A stretch of 64,000 nt of DNA from a virus (Duplodnaviria; Heunggongvirae; Uroviricota; Caudoviricetes). The notes beneath the pieces were generated by a model. The model made no database searches, was not told the origin of the DNA, and saw only the letters and a list, made by a program, of their open reading frames with translations. The position numbers were made by a program, and so were the translations under genes. Where the stretch lies: IMG/VR virus record IMGVR_UViG_3300047471_000949, one strand, 5' to 3'. Below are positions 4,527 to 62,400 of this stretch, piece by piece (the first letter of the stretch is position 1; each line of letters opens with the position of its first letter).

Positions 4527-4529
4527 ACG

Positions 4530-6792: not shown

Positions 6793-6821
6793 AATAAAAT
6801 ACCACCTGAAAGGAAAACATC

Positions 6822-17327: not shown

Positions 17328-17732
17328 ATGATTAGCTGGCCCTGGACATCTAAAAGCCAACACAATAAAGAACTTGATCGAGCCTATCGGAACTCCCAGC
17401 TTGTCCTGGAAGCCGAAGTTAAAAAGCTTCAGGAGGAATATCACGAGCGCTGGGAACCGTTATTACAAAAGGCCATTCAACTAAAGCCCCGGCTAAATGC
17501 CCAACGTGATTCTTTCGTCCTGCATATCGGAATAGATCGATATATGGTCGAGATGGTTGCCTCGCATAATGATGAACACGTCTGGGAATATTTCGTGGAG
17601 GAAGTTGCCGTTCATCTAAAGCGACAGCTGCTTTCGCTAAACTTTTCCGGGCTATATCGGCTGGCGAGAGAAACCGAACATCGATATCCCACACAGCTCT
17701 GGCGCGGACCAGATAATATACCTCCCATCTAG
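17328..17732 (+). CDS. hypothetical protein
   Basis: 134-aa ORF, AGGAG SD. Confidence 0.7.
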   Translation: MISWPWTSKSQHNKELDRAYRNSQLVLEAEVKKLQEEYHERWEPLLQKAIQLKPRLNAQRDSFVLHIGIDRYMVEMVASHNDEHVWEYFVEEVAVHLKRQLLSLNFSGLYRLARETEHRYPTQLWRGPDNIPPI

Positions 17733-24603: not shown

Positions 24604-25314
24604 TCAGCGATCATGAAACGCTGCCTTCCTTATTGTATTAACTGAATCTTGCCAAACATGGTATTCAGAAGACTTCATAAAATTGGCCAACGGCATAAAG
24701 AGAACTGAATTCCACTTGGGCGGGGAAATAACCATAAGTCGTGATCGAATATTAGAAAGTAGATACTTTTTGATACACGGACGAAAGTAGGCATACTTGG
24801 ATGATCCCGAAAGGATTTTATAGGAAATGATCAGGCGAGTGTGTTCGTCGGCTCGGTGTGTCGAGACAACTGACGATAGTGCCATCATCAGCCTTGCGCG
24901 TTCGACCGGAGGCAGATAATGCATGTTCATTCCAGTCATGGAGTTACCCGCGATTGTAAACGGAAACACCAGGGGAAAAGTATCGTAGTAGGGCAGCGTT
25001 CCCTTCCCCTTCGGATCATAATTGAAGAAGATCATCTGTCCAATCATTCGTCGGTTGACCTGGGATGTTGTCTCCTGCGCATTCTCCATGACCTGTTTGC
25101 GAGCCTCGGACGGGGTAATGCTATCTTTTTTAGCGGCAGCAGTAGCTAATGCATCGGCCGAGGAGGGGGCCGTAGTCTTCTTGGTCTGTTCGGCGGCTTG
25201 TCCTTGCCGGGCAAGTTCTCGTATCTGGGAGAGGTAGAACTCGAGTGAACCTTTTCCTGAGGCGGAATGTTCGCGTCGAAGTCGAGCGATATAGTCCTCG
25301 AGTGACTCAGCCAC
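24604..25314 (-). CDS. gp2: DNA end protector protein gp2
   Basis: FFNYDPK...LPYYDTFPLVFP...GMNMHYLPP. Confidence 0.9.
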   Translation of the reverse strand: MAESLEDYIARLRREHSASGKGSLEFYLSQIRELARQGQAAEQTKKTTAPSSADALATAAAKKDSITPSEARKQVMENAQETTSQVNRRMIGQMIFFNYDPKGKGTLPYYDTFPLVFPFTIAGNSMTGMNMHYLPPVERARLMMALSSVVSTHRADEHTRLIISYKILSGSSKYAYFRPCIKKYLLSNIRSRLMVISPPKWNSVLFMPLANFMKSSEYHVWQDSVNTIRKAAFHDR

Positions 25315-25732
25315 GCTGTGGTATCCCTAATTCAATCTCAGTCAGTATCTTGAAACTCCAACCTCGTTGTTCACAATAACGGCGGGCAGCTTCCCACTTT
25401 TTAAGGTTGATGGCAAAGGTTGCGCTTTCCTTCAGGAAGCGTCGCATTGTTGATTTATGCACAGGTTGAACAGTTTCTTTAGCTGGTTTTATCTCAACCA
25501 GGTAAGTATGTCCTGTGTTATCTTTCACACGAAAATCAGGAAAGTATCGATGAATATTATTATCCAGCGGAGATTGATAGGGCACAGCGATTTCCTCAGA
25601 CGACCACTCAATAATATTCGGATCATTATCAAGTTTCATCATATACTTTAACTCCCAGCTTGACCTCCACACAATATTTGTTGGGTTGCCTCGGTACTTG
25701 GAGGAGTTTTTAAGTTTAAATAAACCTTTCAT
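25307..25732 (-). CDS. gp4: head completion nuclease gp4 (TnsA-like)
   Basis: KYRGNPTNIVWRSSWE...WSSEEIAVPY...HRYFPDF. Confidence 0.95.
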   Translation of the reverse strand: MKGLFKLKNSSKYRGNPTNIVWRSSWELKYMMKLDNDPNIIEWSSEEIAVPYQSPLDNNIHRYFPDFRVKDNTGHTYLVEIKPAKETVQPVHKSTMRRFLKESATFAINLKKWEAARRYCEQRGWSFKILTEIELGIPQRG

Positions 25733-46852: not shown

Positions 46853-47046
46853 TGATCGATCTGGTAAAAACCAATGTTGCTGGTTTCTCAAAAAACAAGA
46901 AATCAAACGTGCTGATTAATACTGATCTGAGCCGAATGACTTCGATTAGGGAAGAACGCCAAAAAGCAAAAGTACTAAAGATGATGCAAGATCGAATAAA
47001 TATGCTGGAATATCGTCTAGCTCTTCTTGAAAGCAAAGTTACATGA
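46852..47046 (+). CDS. conserved small coiled-coil protein following VrlC
   Basis: GFSKNKKSNVLINTD...coiled coil; TAATG-coupled. Confidence 0.7.
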   Translation: MIDLVKTNVAGFSKNKKSNVLINTDLSRMTSIREERQKAKVLKMMQDRINMLEYRLALLESKVT

Positions 47047-48620
47047 GCCGGGTTCTTAACTTCCTAAACATTAGCACCGACCACTTTAGCAATTTGTATG
47101 CGCTAGCAAACAACCTTGTTTCGGTGTTAGCTAACGAGACAGTTACGGCCAATTCTATCGCGGGCGGAGCTATGACCGTCGGAAACGGATTCGTTTCGGG
47201 TATTTTCGGGGCTAATACCATTACTACAACGACGCTTCGCGGCGGTAATGTTGGGACTACTACAGCGGTTGCACTTGGCGCAAATCTGACTGGGACTGGT
47301 TTCAGGCTGCAAGTTGGAAACGTTGCGGTAAATGACACAGTTCTTGCAGTTGGCGCCAATATTATTGCCAATACTATATCCTACTGGGCTGGTAATACTA
47401 TAGCAAATCTTACTATAACTGCAACATCTATCGTGGTCGCCAACGCTTCTGGACAGACTTCAATAACTCCTACCACCTTCTTTTCTGGCAACTCAACTGT
47501 TAATGCTTTTAGCAATTCAACGGTTGATGTTATTGCTAATGCCACATCGCAGGCAGTCTTCACGCAAGGCTCACTGTTAATCGGCAACTCGTTGGCCAAT
47601 TCGCTGGTCAATTCGACGGCTGTTGTCTCTCCTTCTGGAATTTTTGGTGGGGCTTCAGCTTCGGTGGCGAATGCCTCAGGGTTCTTTTTTAATAATGTTC
47701 AGGTAACAGGAGGTGGCGGAGGCGGCACCCCTGGTGGAGCAAACGCCACCATTCAGTACTCGAACAATGCTGCTTTTGCTGGAAGCTCCAACCTGACCTA
47801 TAACTGGACAACCACAGTTCTGGCCATTGGAGCTGGGACAGGTGTAACTATTAACTCTTCAGCCTTTTCTGGGACAGCCAACAATGCACTTAATCTGGGG
47901 GGCACCGTAGCCTCCGGTTATCAGACGGCTGCTGGACTTTCAGCCAACGTTATATTATTAACAGCCAATAATGCAAACTTCCTTGGGGGTGTAGCAGCCG
48001 CAGGTTATCAAACAGGTGCTGGACTGGCTGCAAATGTCCTGACTCTGACTGCTAATAATGCCACCAACTTTGGAGGTCTCCCGCCTTCCAGCTATCTATC
48101 AACTGCTGGACTGGCGGCAAATGTTCTAACCATGACCTCGAACAATACATTGTTTCATGTTTCAGGTCAGACAAATATCAATTCTACCTCGTGGGGTATT
48201 GGTAATACGATAGCTAATACCACAGTCAATTCAACAATTATTGCAGTTAGTTCTCCGGGTGTCAATACCCAAGTTAATACCACGGCGATGTCGTTTGGAA
48301 TTTCGGCTATTTCTCCTGTAACAATTTCATCGACTGGAGCAGTTCCTCAAGTGATCGATGCCTTTCCGTTAGCTACCTATCGGGCGGCTGAATATCTGAT
48401 ATCAATCAAAGATAATAATGCGAATAATTATCAGCTGTCTAAAATACTTCTGTTACATACAGGAGGCGATGCAATTCTGACTTCTTATGGAACTCTTATA
48501 AGTAATACTGATCTGGGAGGTTTTACGGCTTCTGCGAATGCGACCGCTGCGGCGCTTACTTTCAATCCAACTTCAGCAAGCACCGTTCTGAAAATAAACA
48601 GAATTCTTATAGCGGTTTAA
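47043..48620 (+). CDS. fibre/structural protein
   Basis: N/S/T/A/G-rich repeats; C-terminal IDAF..ATYRAAEYLISIKD...YQ domain. Confidence 0.75.
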   Translation: MSRVLNFLNISTDHFSNLYALANNLVSVLANETVTANSIAGGAMTVGNGFVSGIFGANTITTTTLRGGNVGTTTAVALGANLTGTGFRLQVGNVAVNDTVLAVGANIIANTISYWAGNTIANLTITATSIVVANASGQTSITPTTFFSGNSTVNAFSNSTVDVIANATSQAVFTQGSLLIGNSLANSLVNSTAVVSPSGIFGGASASVANASGFFFNNVQVTGGGGGGTPGGANATIQYSNNAAFAGSSNLTYNWTTTVLAIGAGTGVTINSSAFSGTANNALNLGGTVASGYQTAAGLSANVILLTANNANFLGGVAAAGYQTGAGLAANVLTLTANNATNFGGLPPSSYLSTAGLAANVLTMTSNNTLFHVSGQTNINSTSWGIGNTIANTTVNSTIIAVSSPGVNTQVNTTAMSFGISAISPVTISSTGAVPQVIDAFPLATYRAAEYLISIKDNNANNYQLSKILLLHTGGDAILTSYGTLISNTDLGGFTASANATAAALTFNPTSASTVLKINRILIAV

Positions 48621-48628
48621 TCACTTTA

Positions 48629-49654
48629 TTAGAATACTACGACAATTACTTGACCGTTAGCCCCCGCACCAGAGCCTGCAAACGTCCCATTCGCAGCAGC
48701 GCCGCCGCCGCCTCCTGGAAAAACGCCGCCAGTTGCGGCTACTGTAGAATTGCCACCAGCACCACCATTACCCCCACCAAAAGTATTACCAGATAAAGAT
48801 GAGGCACCCCCCAGCGCAATTGCAAGGTTCCTAACGCTATTGCCGCCACCACCACCTCCCATAAATGAGGCGCCGCCTAGCAAGCCAGTGCCGCCGCCAG
48901 CTCCAGCTCCACCGCCTCCACCATAGACTGACGGCCCTCCCGGGGTGCTGGCAGTGGAAAGACCACCAGAACTAAATGGATCGGTCATCGCGAAGCCCGT
49001 TCCTGGAGTGCCGGGACTTCCTGCGCTAGTCCAGCCGCCTCCGCCTCCGCCGGCTGTTTGGCTGGTGTTGCCGTTACCACCGCCTCCTCCTCCAAACGCT
49101 TTCCAAATTGTAGAAACGCCTCCTTGATTGAAAGATGAATCGCCTCCAACTAGACCAGTATTAGAAAGTGATGCGGCTGCTGCAGTACGGGATACTCCCC
49201 CGATGCCGACAGTTACAGTTTCAGTTGAATTAAACGCTGAAAGTGGTGCATAACCAAATACATATGCACCACCACCACCACCGCCGGCCGCACCGAGTGC
49301 GGCATTAGCACACCCCCCTGAACCGCCTGCTCCCCAAACGTAAATAGCAACAGTAGTTCCTGAAGCAGGTTTTGTCCAAGTACCGTTTGCTGAAAAGGTT
49401 TGAACGTTGCTTCCGCCACTAGTAAGAGCAACACCTTTGATTGCGAATGCTGTAGAATTTATCGAAGTATTCGATGAAGCGTCAGCAACTGACATAACTA
49501 GCGAATTTGCAACAGTATTGACTGTGGCATTACCAATCCAAACTGGCGCTCCAGTAACAGCAATTGTTGTGGAATTAGCGACAAAGGTGGTGTTTACCGT
49601 GAGCGCAGTATTAACTGCTAGTCCTTGTCGTACTCTGAAATCTTGTGTAGCCAT
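48629..49654 (-). CDS. glycine-rich fibre/adhesin protein
   Basis: VQTFSANGTWTKP...VWGAGGSGG; long Gly-rich domain. Confidence 0.8.
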   Translation of the reverse strand: MATQDFRVRQGLAVNTALTVNTTFVANSTTIAVTGAPVWIGNATVNTVANSLVMSVADASSNTSINSTAFAIKGVALTSGGSNVQTFSANGTWTKPASGTTVAIYVWGAGGSGGCANAALGAAGGGGGGAYVFGYAPLSAFNSTETVTVGIGGVSRTAAAASLSNTGLVGGDSSFNQGGVSTIWKAFGGGGGGNGNTSQTAGGGGGGWTSAGSPGTPGTGFAMTDPFSSGGLSTASTPGGPSVYGGGGGAGAGGGTGLLGGASFMGGGGGGNSVRNLAIALGGASSLSGNTFGGGNGGAGGNSTVAATGGVFPGGGGGAAANGTFAGSGAGANGQVIVVVF

Positions 49655-49699
49655 TGTTGAGTTCCCTTTCCCCCAAGTTTAGTTATTTAGTATTTTTAT

Positions 49700-49707
49700 T
49701 ATTTATA
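49700..49707 (-). promoter_or_regulatory. T4-type late promoter
   Basis: exact TATAAATA on the minus strand. Confidence 0.65.
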
Positions 49708-51988
49708 CTGTATAGGCAAGCCTGGAGCCTTTTACTATAGTTCCAGTTGAAACCGGCGTAAAGTTTAGTGCAGCTGCAGTGGAATTAGCTGTTGCGGTGA
49801 ATGTTCCCATCGCTGTGTTGCTAATCAGGGGGGCATATTCTGTTAGAATTGCATTCGTTCCATCCTGAAGCATTTCGATCCGGGAAGTCTGATAGTTGTT
49901 GGCGGCAGTATCCTTGATCGAGAGAACATATTCGGCTGAGCGGAATGTGGCGATTAGAAACGAATCGATAACCTGGGCACCAGTTCCAGAGGTGGTGAAG
50001 TTAACTGTTGAGAATAATGAAACGCCGTTAAATGCTAATGATATTGAGTTTATCGTAGTATTGACGGTGGTATTGCCGATTTGCCACGAAGTTGAATTGA
50101 TTAGTGTCTGACCTGAAGCAACAAAATTTGTGTTGTTCGCGGTCATAGTCAAGACATTAGCCGCCAGGGTGCTGTTTAGCTGATATGAGGCTGCTGCTGT
50201 TCCTCCAAGGAAGTTCGCATTATTTGCGGTCAGAACTAAAACGTTGGCTGCTAGTCCGGCTGTTGTTTGATAACCGGCTGCAGCCGTTCCGCCAAGATTG
50301 AGCGCATTATTAGCAGTTCCAGAAAAGGCGGTTGAGTTTACGGTGACACTGAAGGTCGCATTGCCCACAAACACTATTGTCGCATTCGCCGACACGTTTG
50401 CAATTGTATTGCCGAGTGTGACAGTATTAGGAGTAATAATGGTTTGAGCGGTCGAGTTGGAAACTAACATAATTGTTGAGTTTACAAACACATTAGCTAC
50501 GGTATTACCAATACCCCACGTTGTAGAGTTAATAGTTGTCTGGCCTGAAACATGGAAGGTTGTATTGTTTGATGTTAGAACTAAAACGTTAGCAGCTAGT
50601 CCAGCCGTGGTCTGATAGCCTGCTGCTGCTGTTCCTCCAAGGAAGTTCGCATTATTGGCAGTGAGGACTAGAACATTCGCAGCCAGTCCAGCCGTAGTCT
50701 GATAACCAGCAGCCGCAGTGCCTCCAAGATTGGTTGCGTTGTTGGCCGTTCCAGAGAAGGTAGTTGAATTTGCTAGAACGTTGACTGTTGCGTTACCAAT
50801 CAATATCTGACTTGAATTAACCGAAATATTAGAAATGGTGTTTCCGAGAGAAATAACTCCCGGAATAATTGTTGTGTTTGAGCCGGTAGTAGAATTGACT
50901 AGATATATTTGGATTGAATTCACGAAGGCGTTGGCCGTAGAATTGCCCAGTGACATAGAGATAGGCGTTGAAACTGTCTGACCTAATGAATTTGCTAAAA
51001 TCTCTATAATAGAATTACCAAAATTATTAGCAGTTGAGTTGCCTATCGAAAATCCGCCTGGGTCTTTATGAAACTTTGAAGTAGCGTTTGTAACTTCTAT
51101 GGCAGTTGAATTTATGAATAGATTGGCTATAGTATTACCAATTGTTATGGATTGAGAATTGACGATTGTTTGACCCTGGTTAATAACAACCGCGTTCGCC
51201 GCAGACATAGTTAAGACGTTTGCAGCCAGTGTGCTGTTTAGCTGATATGAGGCTGCAGCAACAGTTCCGAGGAAGTTGGCGTTATTAGCCGTGAGGACGA
51301 GAACATTTGCGGCTAGTCCAGCCGTAGTCTGATAACCAGCGGCTGCGGTGCCTCCTAGATTGGTTGCGTTGTTAGCTGTTCCAGAGAAGACGGTTGAGTT
51401 TGCAGCAACGTTGATAGTCGCATTACCAATGAAGATCGATGTTGAATTGATTGTGACATTGGCAATCGTGTTTCCTATCTGCCATGATGTAGAGTTAATA
51501 AGGGTCTGACCTGAAGCAACAAAATTTGTGTTGTTTGAGGTCATAGTCAGGACGTTTGCAGCCAGAGTGCTGTTTAGCTGATAGGAAGCAGCCGCTACAG
51601 TTCCGAGGAAGTTGGCATTATTTGCGGTCAGAACTAAGACATTAGCCGCCAGTCCAGCCGTAGTCTGATAACCAGCAGCCGCAGTTCCACCAAGATTGAG
51701 CGCATTGTTGGCAGTTCCAGAAAAAACAGTTGAGTTTGCCGCAACGTTGACCGAGGCGTTGCCGATAAATACCGCGGTTGAGTTTATATAGACATTAGTT
51801 GTGGTATTACCAACAGAAATGTTTGCTTGGTTAATATCAACATTCGCTCCAACCGATATATTTGTTGAATTGACCGAGACATTGACCGTCGAATTGCCAA
51901 CCGAGACCGCATTGGCAACAGGGAGATTTCCCTTCCCGCTTATATTAGGATATCTTTGTTTAGGACGAGAACCTGGAGTCTGAAACAT
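49703..51988 (-). CDS. fibre/structural protein, paralogue of ORF 47043
   Basis: four long repeats; same C-terminal IDSF..ATFRSAEYVLSIKD domain. Confidence 0.8.
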   Translation of the reverse strand: MFQTPGSRPKQRYPNISGKGNLPVANAVSVGNSTVNVSVNSTNISVGANVDINQANISVGNTTTNVYINSTAVFIGNASVNVAANSTVFSGTANNALNLGGTAAAGYQTTAGLAANVLVLTANNANFLGTVAAASYQLNSTLAANVLTMTSNNTNFVASGQTLINSTSWQIGNTIANVTINSTSIFIGNATINVAANSTVFSGTANNATNLGGTAAAGYQTTAGLAANVLVLTANNANFLGTVAAASYQLNSTLAANVLTMSAANAVVINQGQTIVNSQSITIGNTIANLFINSTAIEVTNATSKFHKDPGGFSIGNSTANNFGNSIIEILANSLGQTVSTPISMSLGNSTANAFVNSIQIYLVNSTTGSNTTIIPGVISLGNTISNISVNSSQILIGNATVNVLANSTTFSGTANNATNLGGTAAAGYQTTAGLAANVLVLTANNANFLGGTAAAGYQTTAGLAANVLVLTSNNTTFHVSGQTTINSTTWGIGNTVANVFVNSTIMLVSNSTAQTIITPNTVTLGNTIANVSANATIVFVGNATFSVTVNSTAFSGTANNALNLGGTAAAGYQTTAGLAANVLVLTANNANFLGGTAAASYQLNSTLAANVLTMTANNTNFVASGQTLINSTSWQIGNTTVNTTINSISLAFNGVSLFSTVNFTTSGTGAQVIDSFLIATFRSAEYVLSIKDTAANNYQTSRIEMLQDGTNAILTEYAPLISNTAMGTFTATANSTAAALNFTPVSTGTIVKGSRLAYTV
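50100..51730 (-). repeat. dispersed coding repeats (FSGTANNALNLGGTAAAGYQTTAGLAANVLVLTANNANFLG)
   Basis: four copies near 50200-50330, 50640-50760, 51270-51390 and 51600-51725, with identical 27-28 bp stretches. Confidence 0.85.
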
Positions 51989-51993
51989 TATCT

Positions 51994-52428
51994 TTAGAAG
52001 TCCGCATAGGTAACAAGGCTATAAACGTTTAGGGCGTTGGTTAGCTGAACAACTGCGGCCATTTGTAGGGTGTTAGCTCCAGGCAAGAATATATATTGTT
52101 GTCCATCGTTATCGACCGGCAATAGCCCATTCAAGCCGCCTGGAGCATTTTGGTTAAAAACTGACACGCTATTCACGGTGCCGTTTCCTGCTCCGGCAGG
52201 AACTGAAATTGTTGTAAGAGGAAACGAGGTGGCTCCGTTATTAGCAGCAATGGTGATACTTCTTGCAGCCGTATCAGTGCTATTCAGTAATATTCCAACC
52301 ACTTTTGAGCCGGATGCGCCGGCCGTAATCATTGTCAGATAATTGGTGGTATTGGTATTGGCAAGTATGGCCAGACCCAACTGAGGAGTTTTGACACGAG
52401 TTACTATCGGATTTTGGGTGAAAACCAT
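51994..52428 (-). CDS. virion structural protein (beta-sandwich-like)
   Basis: 144-aa ORF behind a late promoter. Confidence 0.7.
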   Translation of the reverse strand: MVFTQNPIVTRVKTPQLGLAILANTNTTNYLTMITAGASGSKVVGILLNSTDTAARSITIAANNGATSFPLTTISVPAGAGNGTVNSVSVFNQNAPGGLNGLLPVDNDGQQYIFLPGANTLQMAAVVQLTNALNVYSLVTYADF

Positions 52429-52462
52429 CTAGATTCTTTCCTTTTGTTATTTATTCCTTGGC

Positions 52463-52482
52463 TATTTATCTCGATATAAATA
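52463..52482. promoter_or_regulatory. back-to-back divergent late promoters
   Basis: GATAAATA (-, 52463-52470) and TATAAATA (+, 52475-52482). Confidence 0.7.
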
Positions 52483-52490
52483 TTAGAACA

Positions 52491-52817
52491 ATGACGACCA
52501 CCAATATCATAATCGCTCAGGGCGCAACCTTCCAACGAGATATCACGCTGACCGATCAAAACGGCCAACCTCTGGATGTTTCAGGATTTCAGGCCAATGC
52601 TGCAATAAAACGTGACCATTATACAAATACAGTAATGACGGTTTTTGAGACTAATCTTAGTCCCGGTAATCTCTCGCTACGCCTGGAAGACTTTACGACA
52701 ACGATTATGGTGCCGGGCGAATATGTCTATGATGTAGTCTTAACCGATGGAACCACAACCTACCGAATAGCGGAAGGACTGGCCACGGTCGACGCCGGAA
52801 CAACAGGGATAGATTAA
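52491..52817 (+). CDS. BppU-N-like structural adaptor protein (108 aa)
   Basis: IAQGATF...GEYVYDVVL...RIAEG; ATG 52491 lies downstream of the promoter. Confidence 0.7.
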   Translation: MTTTNIIIAQGATFQRDITLTDQNGQPLDVSGFQANAAIKRDHYTNTVMTVFETNLSPGNLSLRLEDFTTTIMVPGEYVYDVVLTDGTTTYRIAEGLATVDAGTTGID

Positions 52818-52818
52818 T

Positions 52819-53055
52819 ATGATACTAGAATATTTAAGCGTGGGGCCTCGTCCAACCTTCACAGTTGAAGCCACCGTAACAAGAGCTTGTCCCCAATGTG
52901 GCCACTCAGGATGGATAAATAATAAATATCACGAAGATCATTGTCCGAAATGTGGTGCCGAAAGGCCTCCAACAGAACCCCGGGGTATGATTTATAGCAC
53001 CAATCCATGGTGGTTGTTAAAGAGAAAGCTCAAAAGGCTAATAGGAAGGGATTAA
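52819..53055 (+). CDS. zinc-ribbon protein
   Basis: CPQC...CPKC. Confidence 0.6.
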   Translation: MILEYLSVGPRPTFTVEATVTRACPQCGHSGWINNKYHEDHCPKCGAERPPTEPRGMIYSTNPWWLLKRKLKRLIGRD

Positions 53056-53058
53056 AAA

Positions 53059-53280
53059 ATGGTACAATTAGAATTTCAAGTTCATCGAGCCAATGAGACC
53101 ACAGTTTCTCATTTGGTTGAAGTGAACGGCGAACAAGTTTCAGCAATTGTTCCAGCTTTTGAGGTAGAATTAGTCTCCACAAATGGTGGCGGCTCATATA
53201 CTCATCGCTGGGTTGGTGCTGGTGTTGCCGAAGCAAAGGCAGCATTTGTTCCAGGAGATACCGTTTCTCTGGAAGTCTAA
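53059..53280 (+). CDS. hypothetical protein
   Basis: 73-aa ORF, GAAGGGA SD. Confidence 0.7.
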   Translation: MVQLEFQVHRANETTVSHLVEVNGEQVSAIVPAFEVELVSTNGGGSYTHRWVGAGVAEAKAAFVPGDTVSLEV

Positions 53281-53289
53281 CAAGTTCTT

Positions 53290-54654
53290 ATGTTTGATAA
53301 TGATATTGCTGAAAAATTAAATGATTTTGCCTATGCCTGTATGAACGACCGCAAGTTCCTTGCGGCTGAATGTTGTTTTAAGCAGGCACTCGTGCTCTGT
53401 CCTGGGCACGATCGCATCCTTGGTAATCTTGGAGCAGTTTACTGGAATGTCAAGGACATTGACCAGTCGTTAGAATATTCGCTCGCCGCAGTTGCCGCCA
53501 ATAACAATAATATGGCGGCTCATTGTAACCTTGGTTTGCTGTATAATTCGATGAACAAGTTCGATGAAGCAGAGCAGGAATACCGTCTTGCCCAAAAACT
53601 TAATCCCGACAAAGCCGACTATGCCTGGAATCTTATGATGAATCATCTTGATCGAGGTGATTGGAAAAGAGGTTTAGAGGAGTTTGATGTCCGCTTTCGT
53701 TACGCCTCACACGACTATGAAGGTTTTAACTTCCCTAGATGGCATGGCGAAGACCTTACTGATAAAACACTATTAATTCGAGCAGAACAAGGGGTAGGCG
53801 ACTGTATAATGGTCTCTCGTTTCTTACCTCTGATTAAGGAGAAATGGCCATCCTCTAAGATTCTTTTTCTAACCCAACACTGGAACCTTCCGTTATTTTG
53901 GGAATATAAACGTCGTGGTGTTATTGATGAGTTTGTCCCGTTCGGAGTGTTGTATCCTGAGGCCGACTATGGCATTTATATGATGTCATTGTTAGGGATA
54001 TTTAACACAACTCCCGACAATATTCCTCCTGATCCTGGTTTCCTGAAGGATTATGCCAAGCACGTAAGAAGCTTTAAGTTAAAGACAACCCGTTCGACTC
54101 CTAAGGTTGGGATTTGTTGGGCCGGCAATCCTGATTTTCTTATGAACCATTGGCGATCGTTTCCGCTCGAAACTATGGCTCCCATCTTGACCGATCCTGA
54201 TATTACATTCTTTTCGCTACAAATGGACGAGGCCCAGAAGGATATTGAACGGCTGGGAATGACGCCAATCCTTTTTGATCTGGCTCCGAGGATAAAAAAA
54301 GAGGGTTGGAACGCTACAATCTCGGCAGTTCAACAACTTGACCTTGTTATCACAGTAGATACTGCTCCGCTTCATCTGGCTGGAGCCCTAGACATTCCAG
54401 TATGGGGCTTGTTAAATCATGCCAACTACTGGCCCTATGGCCGTGATGGGAAATTAACAACTCCGTGGTATCCCTCGCTGAAATTGGTTCGTCAGGATTA
54501 TCCTGGTCAATGGGAAACTGCTATAAATAGAGTTGTAAGTGATTTGAAGGAGTTTAAGACGAAGTTTAAACCAGAGGTCTATGTTCCTCATGGATCGTCT
54601 AAAAGCCACTCCCATTTGAATTTGGGTTCCAAAGATTTTGTCTATAGTCCTTGA
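53290..54654 (+). CDS. TPR-containing glycosyltransferase (GT-B, GT9-like C-terminus)
   Basis: three TPR-like repeats; EQGVGDCI, VGICWAGNP and LDLVITVDTAPLHLAGALDIP motifs. Confidence 0.88.
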   Translation: MFDNDIAEKLNDFAYACMNDRKFLAAECCFKQALVLCPGHDRILGNLGAVYWNVKDIDQSLEYSLAAVAANNNNMAAHCNLGLLYNSMNKFDEAEQEYRLAQKLNPDKADYAWNLMMNHLDRGDWKRGLEEFDVRFRYASHDYEGFNFPRWHGEDLTDKTLLIRAEQGVGDCIMVSRFLPLIKEKWPSSKILFLTQHWNLPLFWEYKRRGVIDEFVPFGVLYPEADYGIYMMSLLGIFNTTPDNIPPDPGFLKDYAKHVRSFKLKTTRSTPKVGICWAGNPDFLMNHWRSFPLETMAPILTDPDITFFSLQMDEAQKDIERLGMTPILFDLAPRIKKEGWNATISAVQQLDLVITVDTAPLHLAGALDIPVWGLLNHANYWPYGRDGKLTTPWYPSLKLVRQDYPGQWETAINRVVSDLKEFKTKFKPEVYVPHGSSKSHSHLNLGSKDFVYSP

Positions 54655-54672
54655 CGATAAAAGAACTATTAT

Positions 54673-54680
54673 TATAAATA
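54673..54680 (+). promoter_or_regulatory. T4-type late promoter
   Basis: exact TATAAATA. Confidence 0.75.
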
Positions 54681-54715
54681 GTCTGAGACATTTTTAATAT
54701 CTAGGAGAAATCTTA

Positions 54716-55438
54716 ATGGCTGCTGCAAACGTTGTAACCTGGGCGGGACGCTCAATCCTTCTTAATAAACTTCACGGAGTCGGAACCGAACCTGTGAATA
54801 TTGGCTGGGGTATTGCAAACGGCCTCAATGCGACCTATATCACTACTTCAGCTTTCTCCGATGTTAATCTATTCCAACCAGCAAACCCTAACCCGGAAGC
54901 CCGTGTTGCTGGAGCTGTCACTCAGCTTACCGCCAACCAGCTTGCCGACGTCTATCAGGTTGTTGGAACAATGACCTGTTCAACCGCAGCAAAAACTATT
55001 GCTGAGGTTGGTCTATTCGATACTGGAACATCTCTTTCAGGAACAGCTCAGATTACAACTTCCTCGATGGCTATTGGTGCTACGACTGTCACAATTGGAG
55101 CTGGCATAACCGGCTTTGCAGTTCTCCCAACATCTCTTAACTATCTGGCTCAAATCGAAAACGAAGTTGTGTTTGTTACGGGCGGACAAGGCACTTCTAC
55201 CCTGACCGTTACCCGAGCCCAGCTTGGCTCGACAGCCGTGGCTCACCCAATTGGTGCCTTTGTTACAGCCGGCGGAGACGGGGGAGCCCACACTGCTAAC
55301 GCATCTATCGCTCCAGTTGTAACAGTAAACTCAGCTGGCGCTAACGGCGGATCGATGTTCGTTCACGGCGACTTCGCAAACATTGCCCTAAACGCTTCGG
55401 ACTCGATTGCGTTTACTCTAAAAGTTCAGCTTGCGTAA
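54716..55438 (+). CDS. virion structural protein, probable high-copy fibre subunit
   Basis: VVTWAGRSI...EPVNIGWG...IAEVGLFD...DSIAFTLK; own promoter and terminator. Confidence 0.7.
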   Translation: MAAANVVTWAGRSILLNKLHGVGTEPVNIGWGIANGLNATYITTSAFSDVNLFQPANPNPEARVAGAVTQLTANQLADVYQVVGTMTCSTAAKTIAEVGLFDTGTSLSGTAQITTSSMAIGATTVTIGAGITGFAVLPTSLNYLAQIENEVVFVTGGQGTSTLTVTRAQLGSTAVAHPIGAFVTAGGDGGAHTANASIAPVVTVNSAGANGGSMFVHGDFANIALNASDSIAFTLKVQLA

Positions 55439-55476
55439 GGCGCGCCTAACAAGCTACTAATACTTCCGCGGAAGTA

Positions 55477-55484
55477 TATAAATA
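55477..55484 (+). promoter_or_regulatory. T4-type late promoter
   Basis: exact TATAAATA abutting a terminator. Confidence 0.7.
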
Positions 55485-55515
55485 CTCCCAGATAACCTCT
55501 GGGAGTTTTTTTATT
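55484..55515 (+). terminator. intrinsic terminator
   Basis: 9-bp stem ACTCCCAGA/TCTGGGAGT followed by a T-run. Confidence 0.8.
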
Positions 55516-56163
55516 ATGAATGAATATAACTATGATCCTACTGTTTTTGATGTTGCAACCCGTGAAGAAGCCAAATCAATAATCCTCACTCCCGAAGCTG
55601 ATAATTCCACCGACAAACGATGGGAACTCGAAACTCCGGCTCTTATCAATCTCCTGAAACCTTATGGTCCGTTCAAGAAAATCCTTGACTATGGCTGTGG
55701 AATTGGCCGCCTCTCCAAAGAACTTGTAACCCGCGATAATCTGATTGTGGGAGCCGATATCTCCATGAATATGAGAACACTTTCTATTCCCTATATGGCT
55801 TCGCCTAACTGGATTCCGGTTCATCCAAATTATCTCCAGGACCTCAACATTAAGTTTGATTTGGTCCTGGCGGTATGGGTGCTTCAGCATGTGATGCATC
55901 CAGCACAGACCATAAAGCAGATAGCCTCGCTGATAAGACCTGGAGGCTATATGCTTGTCGTTAATAATTATAACCGAGTTGTTCCTTGTCAACATGACGG
56001 TAAACTAGTTTGGGCTACCGATGGGATTGATATTCGAGCCCTCCTCGATGGTTGTTCGGAACTAACCGCAGCCACTCATAAGGTCTATACGGAATTCAAG
56101 CTTCCTGAGACGTTTGGAAAGCTTTCCGAGTTCACCTGGATTAGACTTTACCAAAAAATCTAA
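55516..56163 (+). CDS. class I SAM-dependent methyltransferase
   Basis: ILDYGCGIGRL, VGADIS and FDLVLAVWVLQHV motifs. Confidence 0.88.
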   Translation: MNEYNYDPTVFDVATREEAKSIILTPEADNSTDKRWELETPALINLLKPYGPFKKILDYGCGIGRLSKELVTRDNLIVGADISMNMRTLSIPYMASPNWIPVHPNYLQDLNIKFDLVLAVWVLQHVMHPAQTIKQIASLIRPGGYMLVVNNYNRVVPCQHDGKLVWATDGIDIRALLDGCSELTAATHKVYTEFKLPETFGKLSEFTWIRLYQKI

Positions 56164-56176: not shown

Positions 56177-56443
56177 ATGTGGAAGTTATTCAATAGATTT
56201 TTCTTCAAACCAGAACCGCCGATGAATGCTGTTGCCGGAGTTGTTAATTCCTGCGGAGGTTTTCGTGTTGTCTGTGGTCCCCTTACTCAGATGTGGTGCC
56301 ATGTTGAACCGGGAGAAAAATTGTATTTGGTGCCAGAGCTGTGGGTTCCTGACAGCAGGCCGATACAACACATTGCCGAGCTGATTGAAATTGTCAATGC
56401 CTACATCAATGAAGACCATCCTCCTGATATTATGAGGTTCTGA
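56177..56443 (+). CDS. hypothetical protein
   Basis: 88-aa ORF after TCTAAATA (56159-56166). Confidence 0.55.
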   Translation: MWKLFNRFFFKPEPPMNAVAGVVNSCGGFRVVCGPLTQMWCHVEPGEKLYLVPELWVPDSRPIQHIAELIEIVNAYINEDHPPDIMRF

Positions 56444-59400
56444 TGGCAACAACTACAGTCTTCCTTACTGCCGCATTAGGAAACTCAGCGCCATGGGCAA
56501 AACCAGGGGATTGGACCGACGCAGGTCATATCGTTCATCTGATTGGTTGTGGAGGGGGTGGCGGTGTCGGAGCCTCTGGCGTCAGCGCGACGCCTGGTGG
56601 TTCTGGTGGGGCTGGAGGAGGTTTTGTTCGTCTTGCCTATTCATCCGGAGCGCTTGCATCTTCGACTACTTTTCAAATCTCCAATAACAACACTTCCACA
56701 ACTGACTCCAACACTGCTGGAACTTTCTGGCAGGGTAATACTGCTGGAAGCACCCAAGCCTATTGGGCGATGGCGGGTCGAGCCGGTGTCACAACAACCG
56801 GCGGCATTGCGAACGGAACCGGCTATGCCAATGGAGCATCAGTTGCATCGGCCGCGGCCGTTTATACAGCAATAGGTGCTGCGGGAGGAAACGGCGCAGC
56901 CTCAACCGTAACGATTACTTTCGGGGGCGGCGGAGGCGGGGGTGGCGCAGCCGGAGCCAATGCGACCAGCACTGGCGCAGCCGCTGGTATGATCGGAGGA
57001 GCCGGCAGCACATCCGCATCCGGAGGCGGAGGAGGAGGCGGCGGAGGCGGAGGAACATCTTCGACAGTCGGAACGGCAGTTGGTGCCTCGGCAACGGGAG
57101 GAAAGGGAGGATCGGGTCCGGGCGGTGTTGCTGGAGGCCTCGGGGGAGCGACTGGTATTGGTATTGCCGCTGCAGCGAATTCAGGAGCCGGTGGCGGAGG
57201 TGGTGGCTTCACTGCTAGCGCGGCTAATAGTTCGGGAGGAGCTGGGGCAACTGGTAATACCTACTACGCGAACGCAACTAACGGTTCTGGCGGAGGAGGC
57301 GGTGGCTCTGGAGGGAACGCGACTAATACTGCCAACACTGCAACAGGAGGTGCTGGAGCCAACTTTGGGGGAGGCGGCGGCGGATCGGGTGCAGTTCGTT
57401 CCGCTTCTACCGTCAAGACTGCTGGTGTCGGCGGCGGTGGTTTGATCGTCATTATCTATACAGTAGGCGCGGCAAATACTCCCCTGACACTTACTTTCAA
57501 GGGGGGTTCACAATTCCTCGATATAAAAAACATCACGCCAGCTCCAGACATATATATCATAAATCCTCAGCTGCAGCCGCTAAAAAACGTCTCTTCAAGC
57601 AGACTTTTTAATAGTCTTGCGTCCTTTAGTTCAATCATAGGAAAATTATATAACAAATTAGCAACGTTTAGTCCAACGGCTATTAGCAGCTTAACCCATC
57701 CCATCATAAACTCAACTAAACTATTTTTTCCGGCCATCCGTTCGTTGATTCAGAAGCAAGTTCAGCCAGCTGCTGATTTATATAATATTAGTATGGGCTT
57801 ACTGCTCCAAAAAACAATAACTCCGCTTCCTGATATCTATAGTCTGTTGATAACAAATCAAATAAGTCGATTACAAATTCTTTCAAAGACTTTAACTTAT
57901 AACGTTGGCGCAATTTATCTTACTATCCAGGGCAAACTCAGTCTCAAAAATCTGTTGGCCTATATCTCAACATTCCCTCTTGGTCTTGGCAACATTATAG
58001 GCTTTGGCGGAGCTATTGGTGAAGCGGCAATAGCCGATATGCAGGAGCTATTTCAGGGAGGCGCAGCTCTGGTAACTGCTATTAAAAGTTCCAGCCAACA
58101 ATTCTCCCAGATTAATATTTTCGCCGCTAATGTTAGAGCAACACTTCAAAAGACTATTTCAAACGTAAAATCTATGAAGGTTAGTTTAATAATACCGCTA
58201 CAAAAGGCAATAAACAAGAGCGTCCTTTTTCTTGCCGGAATTGTAGGCCTGATCCAAAAAGTTACTACCCCTATAGCCCGCCAGTATCAAATCGTAACAT
58301 CGGCATTAACTAAAAAAACTGCAGCTAAAGCTGTTGTCTTTTTTGCCGCCGCCTCAAACCAAATCCAGAAAGCCGCTACGATCCTAAGAACATTCAGCTC
58401 GGCTACAACAACTCTTCTACAAAAAGCGCTTAGCAGAACAACAATATTCAGCTCAGCGACGACAACGCTTCTACAAAAAGCGATGAGCAGAACAACAATA
58501 TTCCGTCTGGCTGCTTCAGCTCTTCTACAAAAATCTCTTGTAGCGCTCCGAACATTTGTTGCAACGCCTACAAGTCTTGTTCAGAAGGCCCTCGGCAAAA
58601 TAATATTATTCTTGGCAAGCGTCAGGTTATTGCTTACCACTCAGTTTATCAGTGGAACCAATCAATTTCCTTACTCTGCAGTAATGGCCATTACCGCCAA
58701 TGTGCGCCTACTCAAAGCTCTGGGCAAGATTACGAACTTCCCGGCAACATCCAGCGCAACCATGGTTAAAGCCCTGGGTAAAACGACAAGTTTCACAGCC
58801 AGCACCATTTCGGCTATAATCAAAATCGTGACCAGGATTGCTACTAACTTCGCAACTTCAGCGAAGCTTGCTCTGGTTAAAACTCCCGGTAAAATCTCAA
58901 GCTTTGTAGCTTCTACCACCTGGACACTTCTAAGAGCTGTTTCTTCCACAAGATTCTTTAATACCCTTGCAAGCTTCCAAGCACAAAAATCATCAGCTCG
59001 GCTAGTTAATTTTGCGGCAACTGTAACTTCACAAATCAAGAAGGCTGGAGCCCGGGTGGTCCAATTCTCTATAGCGGGCATTGTGGCCATTGTCAAGAAC
59101 CTTTCATCGTCCGCTAAAATCTTCAACATTCTTGCATCTGGTTCAACTGCTCAACAACGAGTTGGCACATCACGCATTCTTGTCCATCTAGCCGCCGCGT
59201 CGTTTTACAGCCAACGGCTGCCAAACCAAGCCTATCGGTTTGCTATAGCTACAACTTTCCGGGTTCAAAGAACCCTAAGCAAAACCAGCCAATTTTCAGC
59301 CTCAGCAATTATGATTGTTTTAAAGGGCGTTGTGACAGGAGCAAAGTTCTTCAGGATACTGACAACTACAACTCTTCAATTGCTGAGGGCACAATCACAG

Positions 59401-62400
59401 CTGGCTATTTTTAAGGCTGTAGCATCGTTTCAGATCAGCTTTCAGAAAATCTATGGTCGAGCTTACAGCTTTGTCGCAATCTCCGTCTTAAAATCTCAAA
59501 AAGCATTGGCTAAGACCATACAATCATCGGCTGCTAGCGTTCTTGCTCTAACAAAGAATATCTTGCCCGCCGCAATTTTCTTTAATATGTTGTCGGCTCT
59601 ACAAGCAGCCGCCTCGCTACAAAGAGCAACACAGCTTATTATTTTTAGTGTAACTGCCAGCTTCCAGCTAATCACAAAGCAACCTTATGTTATAGTTTAT
59701 AACTTTGTTGTAAGCACAATCTCAAACGTCCAAAAGGCTCTAACTAAGCTGCCGATTTCAGTCTCATTCAACAGCACAATGAACCTCCTAAAGAATATTC
59801 CGGCTCCTGAAAAAATCTTCAACGTTCTGGCAACCGCTCCCCTACTATTAAAGATACAAGCGAAAACTGTTGTTTATATAATAAACGTGTTTTTCCAGGC
59901 ACAAAAATTGAAGGCACAGCTTACCGTTTATAAAGCTGTCGTATTATTTCAGCCGCAAAAATTGTTGGCTCGTATTTCCAGCTTCGTTATAGCCGCCACA
60001 ATAACCACGCAAAAAGCGACGGGCAAAGTCATTCAATCTTCGATTGCTGGTGTTTTAACTATCATAAAGGCAGTCTTCCCTGGAGCAAAACTCTTCAACC
60101 TTCGGGCAGCCGCAATCCAGACAAAAACAAAATTACAATCTATCCTTCAACTTGTTGTCGCATCGTTTGTTCAACCGCCAAGATTTTTAAGTAAAATGTC
60201 GAGTTTCATTGTCGCAGTAGCAGCAAAAACTCAGGCTATGAAGGGTCACGTGCTGACATTCTTCGTTGTCTTTGGTAAAAACGCGACAACAACCTTTTCT
60301 GGGCTAATAGCACATTACTCGTTTGATGATGGCTCAGCAAACGATACATCCGGCAACGCTCTTAATGGAACAGAAAATGGGGGAGTTACAACAGCTCCTG
60401 GAAGAAGAGTCAACGCCCTACAGTTCAATGGATCGACAGGTTATGTTTCTATACCGGCTGCAGCCTTTAACTATAGCGCCAGCTATCAAGGATCATTTAC
60501 TTGTTGGTTCAAAACAACCGCTTCGGGAATTATTTTGGGACAAGCTCAACCAGCCACTCCTGGAGGAGCCCTTCCTGCAGGACACGTTCCGGCACTCTAT
60601 ATCGACAATTCTGGATTCCTACGCGCCAGCTTCTTCTGGCACAATTCTACCACCTCCCAGATTGTTTCGGCCGCTGCACTCAATGATGGACAATGGCATC
60701 AGGCAGTAGATACTTATGATGGAACTACCGAAACTCTTTATATCGATAAAAACATCGTCGGTAGCCAAGTTGTTGCTCAAAACGATTATAGTCCTGGCTC
60801 CTACAATTATTGGCTGGGCGTTGGAAATTCAAGCTGGGTAAATGATCCAGGAGGTTGGTTCTGGTATAACGGAGCGCTTGATGATATCCAAACCTACAAT
60901 CGGGCCCTAACAGCCAATGAAGTTGCACAATTATATGTAGCAGGACAAGGAGGATTCTTCCTAGCAAAGCAGGTTTCTTCGGTTCTACAACTTTTCAATA
61001 TGTTGATTACCGTTTCAGCCGCACAAATAATCAGAACAATATCGACCATCAAACTCTTCAAGGCAGCGGCAACAGCTTCTACTTTCCCCGGCAGAGCAGT
61101 CCTTGTGAAACTACTGGGCTATGTTTCGACATTCCCTCTTGGTTTTGGCAACATTATGGGCTTTGGCGGAGCTATTGGTGAAGCAGCCATTGCTGATATG
61201 CAAGAGCTATTCCAGGGTGGTGCTGTTCTCGTAGGAACCGTCAAGAGCACAATACATCATCTTGCCCAATCTGGTCTCTTTACAACTACAACAACGGCTT
61301 TACTGACAAAAACAGCATCAATGCTTCGATCGTTCTTTGCAGCTTTAACATTTTCTCGACTACAAAAGGCTATTAACCAAATCAAAACCTATCAAGCGGC
61401 AGCTTCTGTTCGCTGGGGAAGAACAGCTCTTACAACATCACTTCTCTTTGGTATAACAGCTACAGTTACTTCGGTAAAAGCTATTGGAAAATCGGCTCTT
61501 GTTTTTACTGCGGCTGCATTATTCAATGCTATACAAAGGAGAGCTACTAAGCTCACAACTTTCCAGGCAGCGGCCAGTGCTTTTATTGCGCAACGAACAC
61601 TTTCGATATTCAAAACATTTAATGCTACTGCCCGTTCTTTGATACAGAAATCGCTGGCCCGCACCACCATATTCTTAATCAATCTTGCTAGTTTCCTCCA
61701 AAAAACGATTACAAGACCTATTGGTTTTGGTCTAGCAGCCCTAAGCTTTGCTTCACAGAATTCGCTTAACAAAATAATAGCATTCAGCACGGCTAGTACA
61801 GCTCTCCTACAACAAAAGGCTGTTGCCATGGCCAGAACATTCTCTGGTATTATAGCTTTCTCGTCGATACAAAAATCTTTGATTCGCCCAGCCACATCAT
61901 TCGTAGTAAGCGCTCGTGGTTTAGTTAGAAGAACCATCAACAAGTCCGAGCAGATATTCCTCGGCATATCCATTCCATTCATTCAGGTTGCGTCCAATGT
62001 TTTTGTCAGAACTTTCAAAATGGCAGCCACACCAATGGCATTACTCCAAAAAGATTTGGTTGTAACCAAGCTGTTTAAAGCGGTGACAAATGTTTCGTGG
62101 CTTCCGAATGCTATTGTCAAAATAACTGTATTCTTGGTAAGCCCTGTCTTCTTAGTCAGAAAAGCCATTACCAAAGGAGTATTGCTGTTTGGTTCGACCG
62201 TGACCTTCTTGTTTCAATACACAAGGGGATACTATCCCAGCTATACATTTATGACAACTACAACAGCTTCGCTGCTTAAGGACCTTAGTAAGAACTTGAA
62301 TTTTGTCCCTGTTGTTGCAATAGCTTTCAAGTCACTTATCCAAAGTGGAGAAAAAATCTTCACTCTTGGAGCTTCGTCATTATTACAAAACGCCATAAGA

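Follow-up and report, generated by a model that had tools for sequence, protein, structure and literature searches.

The window, a 64-kb stretch of phage DNA, contains a block of fibre genes within which a predicted glycosyltransferase and a methyltransferase are embedded, as an earlier note on this DNA had observed. The long tail fibre P0001 (fib761; 49703..51988, minus strand, 761 aa) is built of 8-residue N-S-T repeats and GTANNAxxLGG units and has 254 homologs, many of which carry tail-fibre Pfam domains. Its paralog P0002 (fib525; 47043..48620, plus strand, 525 aa) is 49% identical to it (alignment A3) and has the same C-terminal domain, and the C-terminal 88 residues of P0002 are also matched by a tail fibre of Synechococcus phage S-SM2. 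Between the two lies a glycine-rich tail-fibre-associated protein of 341 aa (48629..49654, minus strand; Gly_rich_2, E 2e-8; phrog_863, tail fiber assembly). The cassette considered here follows on the plus strand and comprises a late promoter with three small ORFs (o119, o78 and o73; 52475..53280) ahead of the enzyme in one operon, the predicted FlmG-like protein glycosyltransferase itself (53290..54654, 454 aa), a 240-aa Gp80-like small fibre protein, P0124 (54716..55438), and a class I SAM-dependent methyltransferase (55516..56163, 215 aa). Directly after the cassette there is a giant structural protein of 2439 aa with a Laminin_G_3 domain (56443..63762, plus strand).

The operon, the 240-aa gene and the methyltransferase gene each have a T4-type late-promoter motif in front of them. 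The motif TATAAATA occurs 11 times where 3.9 occurrences are expected, with copies at 54673 and 55477 that precede ORF 54716 by 36 nt and ORF 55516 by 32 nt, respectively, and a minus-strand copy at 49700-49707 serving the 341-aa ORF. The earlier statement that both enzyme and methyltransferase are under late promoters is therefore true of the methyltransferase, which has its own motif, while the motif search found no TATAAATA belonging to the glycosyltransferase, which is instead the fourth gene of the operon that starts at the copy at 52475. Among the small ORFs that separate this promoter from the enzyme, o119 resembles tail-fibre assembly proteins (phrog_1084 and phrog_3304 matches), o78 is a zinc ribbon (Zn_Ribbon match) and o73 has homologs just upstream of the enzyme in other loci (L002, L009, L010, L011 and L013).

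The identification of ORF 53290-54654 as a TPR glycosyltransferase is upheld by Pfam matches, an AlphaFold model and fold comparisons, which together describe an enzyme with FlmG architecture. An N-terminal TPR domain (residues ~1-140; TPR_1, E 1.8e-10) is followed by a GT9-type GT-B domain (residues ~150-428), for which the Glyco_transf_9 (PF01075) match is marginal (22.7 bits, cut-off 22). The model, which is confident (pLDDT 92), shows TPR helices and then two Rossmann lobes in a soluble protein with no membrane segment. A Swiss-Prot fold search returned Caulobacter FlbA, that is FlmG, as the top whole-length match (TM 0.77, E 6.7e-21; rmsd 4.0 A and 23% identity over 446 columns). The catalytic domain matches the GT9 structures 3tov, 1psw and 2h1f as well as TibC (4rap) with Z 15.5-16.9 and rmsd 3.1-3.7 A, and the GT9 signature motifs GD and DxxPxH align with those of 3tov. 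Relatives of the enzyme are encoded by at least 580 viral contigs, and residues E166, Q167, G168, G170, D171, D351, T358 and H362 are invariant in an alignment of 38 homologs with 31-50% identity to the window enzyme. The proposal that this is an HMW1C/NGT-type enzyme does not fare as well, as ORF 53290-54654 has no Pfam match to GT41. OGT and SPY (SPINDLY) are the top Foldseek matches in the PDB (E about 1e-10), but the TPR part drives those matches; across both domains together, OGT-type structures superpose only with an rmsd of 11-17 A and a whole-length TM of about 0.3.

The genes that are consistently found with the enzyme are those for the 240-aa Gp80-like protein and the methyltransferase, not those for sequon-rich long fibres. 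Of 14 close viral loci that could be evaluated, 12 encode the 240-aa protein right after the enzyme, as do L081 and L082, while two close loci with downstream room (L008 and L016) are without it. The order small ORF, enzyme, 240-aa protein, methyltransferase and large Ser/Thr-rich protein is kept in L001, L002, L005, L006, L007, L009-L014 and L017, and also in L081 and L082, which come from other collections. In addition, a 199-kb contig encodes the enzyme, an FkbM methyltransferase and a homolog of the 240-aa protein within 4 kb. Judging by sequence and modelled structure, P0124 is a virion fibre-type protein. Its family of 127 proteins has no Pfam match, although a fragmentary homolog scores 26.9 bits against PF23140 (cut-off 27). 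A structure search of the Atlas places P0124 with a Gp80-domain cluster (TM 0.92 by hit), its PDB matches are the VP1 and GP4 fibre chains, and its BFVD matches are tail-fibre N-terminal domains; the Gp80 type comprises small fibre monomers (PMC13730344). Ser and Thr make up 19.6% of P0124 and, on average, 26.6% of the members of its family, in which 29 Ser/Thr columns are conserved and sequons number about 1.3 per 100 aa. Distant P0124 homologs occur in Streptomyces prophages with no such enzyme nearby, and the fibre protein therefore does not need the enzyme.

ORF 55516-56163 is, as had been noted, a SAM methyltransferase of class I (Methyltransf_23, E 7e-13; also Methyltransf_11, 12 and 25), whose PDB and NCBIfam relatives are only generic small-molecule methyltransferases. 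In 9 loci a homolog is found 0-2 genes beyond the 240-aa protein, and at one locus (L005:5479-7401) a methyltransferase homolog and the enzyme form a single fusion protein, with the methyltransferase on the N-terminal side. Large Ser/Thr- and Gly-rich ORFs follow the cassette in most related loci, with 18-24% Ser/Thr in L001, L002, L005, L006, L009, L010 and L011. L081 ORF 5115-7115, just after the methyltransferase of that locus, matches residues 502-919 of the 2439-aa protein, and L010 ORF 9209-13423 matches its N-terminus. The 2439-aa protein is a possible further substrate.

The earlier note had proposed that an HMW1C/NGT-like enzyme N-glycosylates Asn within the sequons of the long fibres and that the methyltransferase caps the sugars, a reading that we now regard as very improbable. 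What speaks for it is the location of the enzyme, 1.3-6 kb from fibres with 47 and 22 sequons, and the abundance of those sequons. The hand counts reported previously held up on computation, with 47 N-x-S/T sequons in 761 aa for ORF 49703, 22 in 525 aa for ORF 47043, and 1 and 3 in the comparison proteins gp32 and DUF932 (6822-7778). Relative to composition shuffles, fib761 has 47 sequons against 27.3 +/- 4.2 (z 4.6-4.8) and fib525 has 22 against 14.6 (z 2.3). When repeats were masked by removing 20-mers at least 60% identical to an earlier 20-mer, the counts were 15 versus 7.8 (z 3.1) for fib761 and 20 versus 12.7 (z 2.5) for fib525, and masking at 50% gave 10 versus 4.8 (z 2.8) and 16 versus 10.7 (z 2.0), respectively. 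Enrichment over composition, which is real for fib761 and weak for fib525, thus survives control for long repeats. However, the excess is confined to N-x-T (39 versus 16.4 expected, z 6.5), and in the same shuffle comparison N-x-S is not enriched (8 versus 10.9 expected). The abundance of N-S-T (21 occurrences, mostly at 8-residue spacing) and sequon spacings that are mostly 4, 8 or 16 residues point to a short periodic structural repeat. Furthermore, a density of 4 or more sequons per 100 aa is reached by 89 of the 120 fibre homologs. Richness in N-x-S/T is consequently best read as a feature shared throughout the fibre family that reflects a structural repeat and not a target signal.

The distribution of the enzyme also argues against sequon-directed N-glycosylation. 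Where records with sequon-rich fibres were searched whole, the enzyme was present in 1 of 10, and it was not found in a complete 167.7-kb phage genome that encodes such a fibre. Conversely, none of 80 enzyme-bearing loci, the closest relatives among them, has an ORF that reaches 4 sequons per 100 aa, and three complete or near-complete enzyme-bearing genomes encode no protein above 2.9 per 100 aa. The expectation that TPR glycosyltransferases and sequon-rich fibres co-occur across phages is therefore not borne out. The one record with both is L150, in which the gene for a distant relative of the enzyme immediately precedes that for a 923-aa member of this fibre family (5.2 sequons per 100 aa) at a locus that also holds a sulfotransferase and a methyltransferase; because of this adjacency the long fibres remain candidate substrates. 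Finally, N-linkage is at odds with the O-links made by TibC and by FlmG, which is the characterised relative with the most similar whole-length fold.

Virion glycosylation by the cassette is nonetheless plausible. The earlier observations are confirmed in part, and their interpretation is partly supported. The reading that we favour, at a little better than even, is that of a late-expressed cassette in the fibre module of an uncultured T4-like phage, the enzyme of which O-glycosylates a virion fibre protein using a donor supplied by the host. By analogy with FlmG, the TPR arm would grip the protein substrate and the GT9-type GT-B domain would transfer sugar from an activated donor to Ser/Thr of the 240-aa fibre protein, with the large Ser/Thr-rich protein after the cassette as another possible target. 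The methyltransferase may modify the glycan or the same protein, with whatever effect on the virion such decoration would have. We infer each of these substrates from synteny. For recruitment of a protein by the TPR arm there is a direct precedent, namely FlmG, a TPR and GT-B O-glycosyltransferase whose TPR domain binds its flagellin substrate (PMC7591256). A host origin of the donor agrees with the earlier remark that nucleotide-sugar genes are missing, as none was seen among the scanned ORFs of the window, which included part of the small ORFs.

An enzyme that acts in a TibC/AAH-like manner on Ser/Thr of the long-fibre repeats, instead of or besides the 240-aa protein, seems to us quite unlikely. 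The long fibres are highly repetitive with about 24-25% Ser/Thr, TibC matches the catalytic domain (246 residues, Z 15.7, rmsd 3.1 A), and enzyme and fibres are neighbours both in the window and in L150. However, the 80 loci with the enzyme contain no homolog of these long fibres, five whole records that encode the enzyme are free of the fibre motif, and the conserved neighbour is the 240-aa protein. A role outside the virion, either late modification of a host target (an envelope glycolipid, flagellin or another host protein) or service mainly as a TPR fibre-assembly chaperone, is also unlikely, if slightly less so. Such a role would fit with GT9 enzymes being classically LPS heptosyltransferases, with the resemblance of o119 to fibre-assembly proteins, and with the nearest bacterial relatives having no informative neighbours (neither flagellin nor sugar genes adjoin them in the neighbourhoods inspected). 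Against this, the invariance of the catalytic motifs throughout the family disfavours a purely structural function. The modelled protein is soluble, and a virion substrate agrees better with the late-promoter context and with the tight synteny with a virion fibre protein that is seen in many phages.

Comparison with known systems places the phage enzyme near, but not within, several of them. FlmG (FlbA, P21296, Caulobacter crescentus) has the same N-terminal TPR and C-terminal GT-B domains and is likewise soluble and cytoplasmic, but it is 596 aa long compared to 454 aa, with about four TPR repeats, for the phage enzyme. FlmG acts on flagellin, whereas the phage enzyme resides in a fibre module with no flagellin gene and, unlike FlmG, has a methyltransferase as a conserved partner. 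The donors used by FlmG are pseudaminic or legionaminic acid. GT9 enzymes (WaaC, RfaF and 3tov) and TibC, of the BAHT family, share the catalytic domain and the GD and DxxPxH motifs, although GT9 enzymes are without the TPR arm. TibC is an iron-containing dodecamer and a protein O-heptosyltransferase that modifies Ser in repetitive beta-helical adhesins, and both TibC and AAH heptosylate repeats of autotransporter adhesins. The GT41 enzymes OGT and SPY resemble the phage enzyme in TPR and GT-B layout and in having cytoplasmic protein targets, but GT41 (OGT, SPINDLY and HMW1C/NGT) is set apart by the Pfam result and by the lack of co-occurrence with sequon-rich fibres. Glycosylation in mycobacteriophages involves other enzyme families and targets the capsid and tail tube. 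Their glycosyltransferases are said to have been proposed or shown to decorate virion proteins (Freeman et al. 2023), and their host phylum differs from that of the window phage. Lastly, the 240-aa protein has the Gp80 fold in common with the chain-like fibre monomers of podophages (GP4, VP1 and A1002), but it is ~100 residues longer, carries a Ser/Thr-rich insert and, unlike these monomers, occurs in a myovirus and is paired with a glycosyltransferase.

The two genes on which an earlier note had built a proposal of virion N-glycosylation are both present in the window: an ORF at 53290-54654 (+) encodes a 454-aa enzyme with tetratricopeptide repeats (TPR) and a marginal GT9 match, and an ORF at 55516-56163 (+) encodes a class I SAM methyltransferase. 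The best-supported reading is that these genes, with that of a 240-aa protein directly after the enzyme (54716-55438, +), form an FlmG-like, GT9-type protein glycosylation cassette.

The N-terminal portion of the enzyme is matched by TPR_1 (E 1.8e-10) and further TPR models over residues 42-115, and helical repeats occupy residues 3-138 of an AlphaFold model (pLDDT 92) predicted from an alignment of 38 homologs. GT9 (PF01075) is the sole glycosyltransferase model matched, and only marginally, at 22.7 bits against a cut-off of 22 and over residues 341-375 only; there is no match to Glyco_transf_41 at E <= 0.01. A profile search of the PDB with the full enzyme is dominated by TPR proteins, and one with the catalytic domain alone gives a weak GT9 match only. 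By far the best fold match in reviewed UniProt is Caulobacter FlbA (P21296; TM 0.77 by query, rmsd 4.0 A, E 6.7e-21), with a superposition that takes in both domains (enzyme residues 10-424). OGT and SPINDLY lie far behind in this ranking, with TM values of about 0.3 and matches that span both domains at rmsd 11-17 A, and HMW1C is absent among the best 50 structural matches listed, which by itself does not prove that its fold differs. We take FlbA, which has 596 residues in Swiss-Prot, to be FlmG on the basis of its length. FlmG, for which the eLife paper also gives 596 residues, is a flagellin O-glycosyltransferase that binds flagellin through its TPR domain and transfers pseudaminic acid through its GT-B domain (PMC7591256). 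With an aligner independent of Foldseek, the catalytic domain (residues ~153-428) superposes on the GT9 structures 3tov (Z 16.9), 1psw (Z 16.4) and WaaC 2h1f (Z 15.5) as well as on the protein O-heptosyltransferase TibC (4rap_A; Z 15.7, rmsd 3.1 A, 246 residues aligned), all at rmsd 3.1-3.7 A. The GT9 signatures, an N-terminal GD and a C-terminal DxxPxH, align with those of 3tov and are invariant across the enzyme family (38 homologs); thus, the enzyme is probably catalytically active. Given the fit of the catalytic domain to GT9 structures and the lack of a GT41 match, nothing connects the enzyme with the GT41 N-glycosyltransferases, and its earlier assignment to the HMW1C/NGT type is not supported. 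A protein search of cultured phages with the enzyme returned only five matches, all distant, and a limited literature search found no paper describing phage enzymes of this FlmG-like kind.

The T4-type late promoter motif TATAAATA is found 11 times where 3.9 would be expected, and it is present upstream of the 240-aa ORF, of the methyltransferase and, at 52475, of an operon composed of three small ORFs (o119, o78 and o73) and the enzyme. Late promoters had been proposed for glycosyltransferase and methyltransferase alike; the methyltransferase does carry one, but the enzyme lacks one of its own and is preceded by that of the operon. Two of the small ORFs lie just ahead of the enzyme at 52819-53280 (+). 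Of these, o78 contains two CxxC pairs (zinc ribbon), and five related loci have an o73 homolog at the corresponding place.

At least 580 viral contigs encode relatives of the enzyme, and 80 of these loci were fetched and all of their ORFs compared with the window proteins by BLAST. The 240-aa protein was matched in 12 of the 80 and the methyltransferase in 8, with no match to the window fibres or to the glycine-rich protein. In a profile search, the 240-aa protein immediately follows the enzyme in 12 of the 17 closest loci. Three of the remaining five stop right after the enzyme and allow no scoring, which leaves 12 of 14 evaluable loci. The same order recurs in two loci from other collections in which enzyme identity is 48% and 37%. 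The full order consists of an o73-like small ORF, the enzyme, the 240-aa protein, zero to two ORFs, the methyltransferase and a large Ser/Thr- and Gly-rich protein. Additionally, a 199-kb contig encodes a TPR glycosyltransferase, a second GT9 protein, an FkbM methyltransferase and a 240-aa homolog, all within 4 kb. Two gene contexts inspected for bacterial relatives of the enzyme contained no informative neighbours.

Two further features of these neighbourhoods can be described. In one fetched locus, L005, a single 640-aa fusion ORF (5479-7401) joins a SAM methyltransferase (residues 1-175) to a TPR glycosyltransferase (residues 218-637). The cassette in the window is adjoined by a giant 2439-aa ORF at 56443-63762 (+) that has a Gly-rich N-terminus, long runs of a hydrophobic/K/R/Q repeat of about 18 aa and a Laminin_G_3 domain at residues 1329-1495. 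Its N-terminus matches a 1404-aa ORF in locus L010, and a related ORF comes after the methyltransferase in locus L081.

The 240-aa protein belongs to a family of 127 members without a Pfam model. Its predicted structure (pLDDT 81) matches a chain of a phage VP1 capsid entry and the phage GP4 portal-tail and fiber I entries in the PDB, tail-fibre N-terminal domains in BFVD, and a Gp80-domain cluster in the Atlas (TM 0.92 by hit); a fragmentary homolog scores 26.9 bits against PF23140 (Gp80), for which the cut-off is 27. Gp80 of GP4, gp11 of VP1 and gp40/gp41 of A1002 serve as the small monomers from which chain-like fibres are built (PMC13730344), and the 240-aa family is about 100 residues longer than such Gp80-type proteins. 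Across the family, Ser/Thr content averages 26.6%, 29 Ser/Thr columns are well conserved and sequons number only about 1.3 per 100 aa; the protein is a plausible substrate for O-glycosylation. No enzyme of this type lies near the distant homologs in Streptomyces prophages, so the pairing of enzyme and 240-aa protein is specific to this subclade. No match to the 240-aa protein was found in a protein search of cultured phages. A complex prediction of the two proteins, each with an alignment, scored 0.00, which is below the mark and bears neither way on the pairing.

The substrates favoured in the earlier note were instead two long tail fibres, fib761 (49703-51988, -) and fib525 (47043-48620, +), on account of their many N-x-S/T sequons. 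The hand counts behind that proposal were accurate (47 in fib761 and 22 in fib525, as compared with one in gp32 and three in the DUF932 protein), and the excess over composition-preserving shuffles is real. It is strong in fib761 (47 versus 27, z ~4.7) and weak in fib525 (22 versus 14.6, z 2.3). However, the excess involves N-x-T (39 versus 16, z 6.5) and not N-x-S (8 versus 11), N-S-T alone accounts for 21 sites, and the gaps between sequons are mostly 4, 8 or 16 residues. Thus, the sequon appears to be one face of an 8-residue structural repeat, GN(S/A/T)T(V/I)NV. When 20-mers that repeat an earlier stretch by identity are masked, a smaller excess is still present in fib761 (15 versus 7.8, z 3.1) and an excess also persists in fib525 (20 versus 12.7, z 2.5), because the short-period repeat escapes a 20-mer mask. 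Self-BLAST of the fibres gave no off-diagonal matches. We found 254 homologs of fib761, many with tail-fibre Pfam domains; the best 120 of these have a median of 4.7 sequons per 100 aa, with 89 at 4 or more and 60 above shuffles at z >= 3. These counts, together with a family consensus that includes GNSTVNVSxNST, indicate that sequon richness is a trait of the fibre family. In protein searches of cultured phages fib761 had no match, and fib525 was matched only through its C-terminal domain, in S-SM2.

If the sequons served the enzyme, then TPR glycosyltransferases and sequon-rich fibres might be expected to occur together, as the earlier note had suggested, but this association fails in both directions. 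A single fibre protein used as query against viral contigs yielded one locus, and a degenerate DNA pattern for GTANNAxxLGG was used to fetch fibre loci, of which 81 were analysed with locus L083. A relative of the enzyme is present in just one locus of this set, L150, where it lies directly upstream of the fibre and is without a recognisable TPR. A search of ten whole records with sequon-rich fibres found the enzyme in one, that of L150, which served as the positive control. The enzyme is missing from a complete 167.7-kb genome that has terminal repeats and encodes a sequon-rich fibre. In the reverse direction, every ORF in the 80 enzyme-bearing loci stays below 4 sequons per 100 aa, the fibre motif is absent from five whole enzyme-bearing records, and three of these five, all complete or near-complete genomes (two rated 100%), have no ORF above 2.9 sequons per 100 aa or z 2.3. 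The L150 region itself (506-6950) consists of a sulfotransferase (506-1282), a methyltransferase (1988-2662), the GT-domain relative (2909-4117) and then a fibre that is at least 923 aa long and has 5.2 sequons per 100 aa.

The window belongs to an uncultured T4-like myovirus of ~185 kb on record and encodes gp32, gp59 and baseplate wedge proteins. Its gp6-like protein shares ~32% identity with its counterparts in Caulobacter phage Cr30 and Sinorhizobium phages phiM12 and phiN3, and a megablast search with the region gave no hit among cultured phages. The reported absence of nucleotide-sugar genes is borne out among the window ORFs scanned. Likewise, no flagellin or sugar-pathway gene was found among these ORFs or in the related loci examined, where the neighbours are phage fibre genes. 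An FkbM-type methyltransferase ORF (2543-3229, +; Methyltransf_21, E 4.8e-13) is situated about 50 kb away from the cassette, with a YkuD L,D-transpeptidase domain protein (367-999) and an SLT transglycosylase (3261-4034) in its vicinity. A 1359-aa ORF at 17729-21808 (-) has no family match and only 2.1% Asn, and sits in a stretch of raised G+C (0.49-0.53 versus ~0.42 elsewhere). Between tail and baseplate genes, an ORF with a TnsA-like endonuclease N-terminal domain (25307-25732, -; E 2.4e-23) may be a mobile nuclease, and a 1703-aa structural protein with a DUF4815 domain (38654-43765, +; E 1.6e-41) follows the baseplate wedge genes.

N-glycosylation at the sequons of the long fibres draws on a genuine sequon excess, yet it is unlikely in light of the GT9/FlmG-like enzyme, the repeat-based nature of the sequons and the failed co-occurrence. 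The long fibres are possible extra substrates, given the arrangement in L150 and their proximity to the enzyme. As a separate candidate role, DNA glucosylation was rejected, since the enzyme has a TPR arm, lies in a late-promoter context and is syntenic with fibre genes. In the preferred reading, that of an FlmG-like protein glycosylation cassette, the enzyme would most likely act on the Gp80-like 240-aa fibre protein, with the 2439-aa protein possibly a further substrate, the methyltransferase coupled to glycosylation and the sugar donor supplied by the host. Since FlmG and TibC are O-glycosyltransferases, we infer that the sugar linkage would be O-linked. More broadly, and with slightly less than even confidence, we suggest that these cassettes represent an extensive, as yet undescribed class of systems that modify phage virions, in which an FlmG-like enzyme and a methyltransferase would build methylated O-glycans on small Gp80-type fibre proteins, and perhaps on long repeat fibres, that tune adsorption or shield the fibres in this T4-like phage.

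If the cassette truly decorates a fibre protein, it would suggest a widespread phage means of altering the receptor-binding apparatus, with a bearing on host range, on defence or immune recognition and on phage engineering. A diffuse hypothesis is replaced by a concrete, testable enzyme-substrate pair, namely the 454-aa enzyme and the 240-aa protein. Additionally, an abundance of N-x-S/T in this tail-fibre family is a property of the repeats and should not be counted as evidence of N-glycosylation.

To our knowledge, very few phages have been shown to possess glycosylated virions. When compared with known systems, the pairing with a sequon-rich substrate that would be expected of a GT41 enzyme of the HMW1C/NGT type is absent from the 80 enzyme-bearing loci and from the three whole genomes, and is seen in one of the ten records with sequon-rich fibres. 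The phage enzyme has the fold and the GD and DxxPxH motifs of GT9 (CAZy family 9, the heptosyltransferase fold), a family typified by an ADP-heptose donor and a lipid-linked acceptor. Its GT9-like fold is also that of the BAHT protein heptosyltransferase TibC. BAHT enzymes (TibC, AAH) are marked by an iron-finger motif, dodecameric assembly and autotransporter substrates, and no autotransporter gene is present alongside the phage enzyme. While FlmG acts on flagellin, with transfer of pseudaminic or legionaminic acid to Ser/Thr, and the phage enzyme is encoded among phage fibre genes without flagellin or nonulosonic-acid genes, FlmG-type TPR glycosyltransferases and the phage enzyme have in common the layout of an N-terminal TPR domain followed by a C-terminal GT-B domain.
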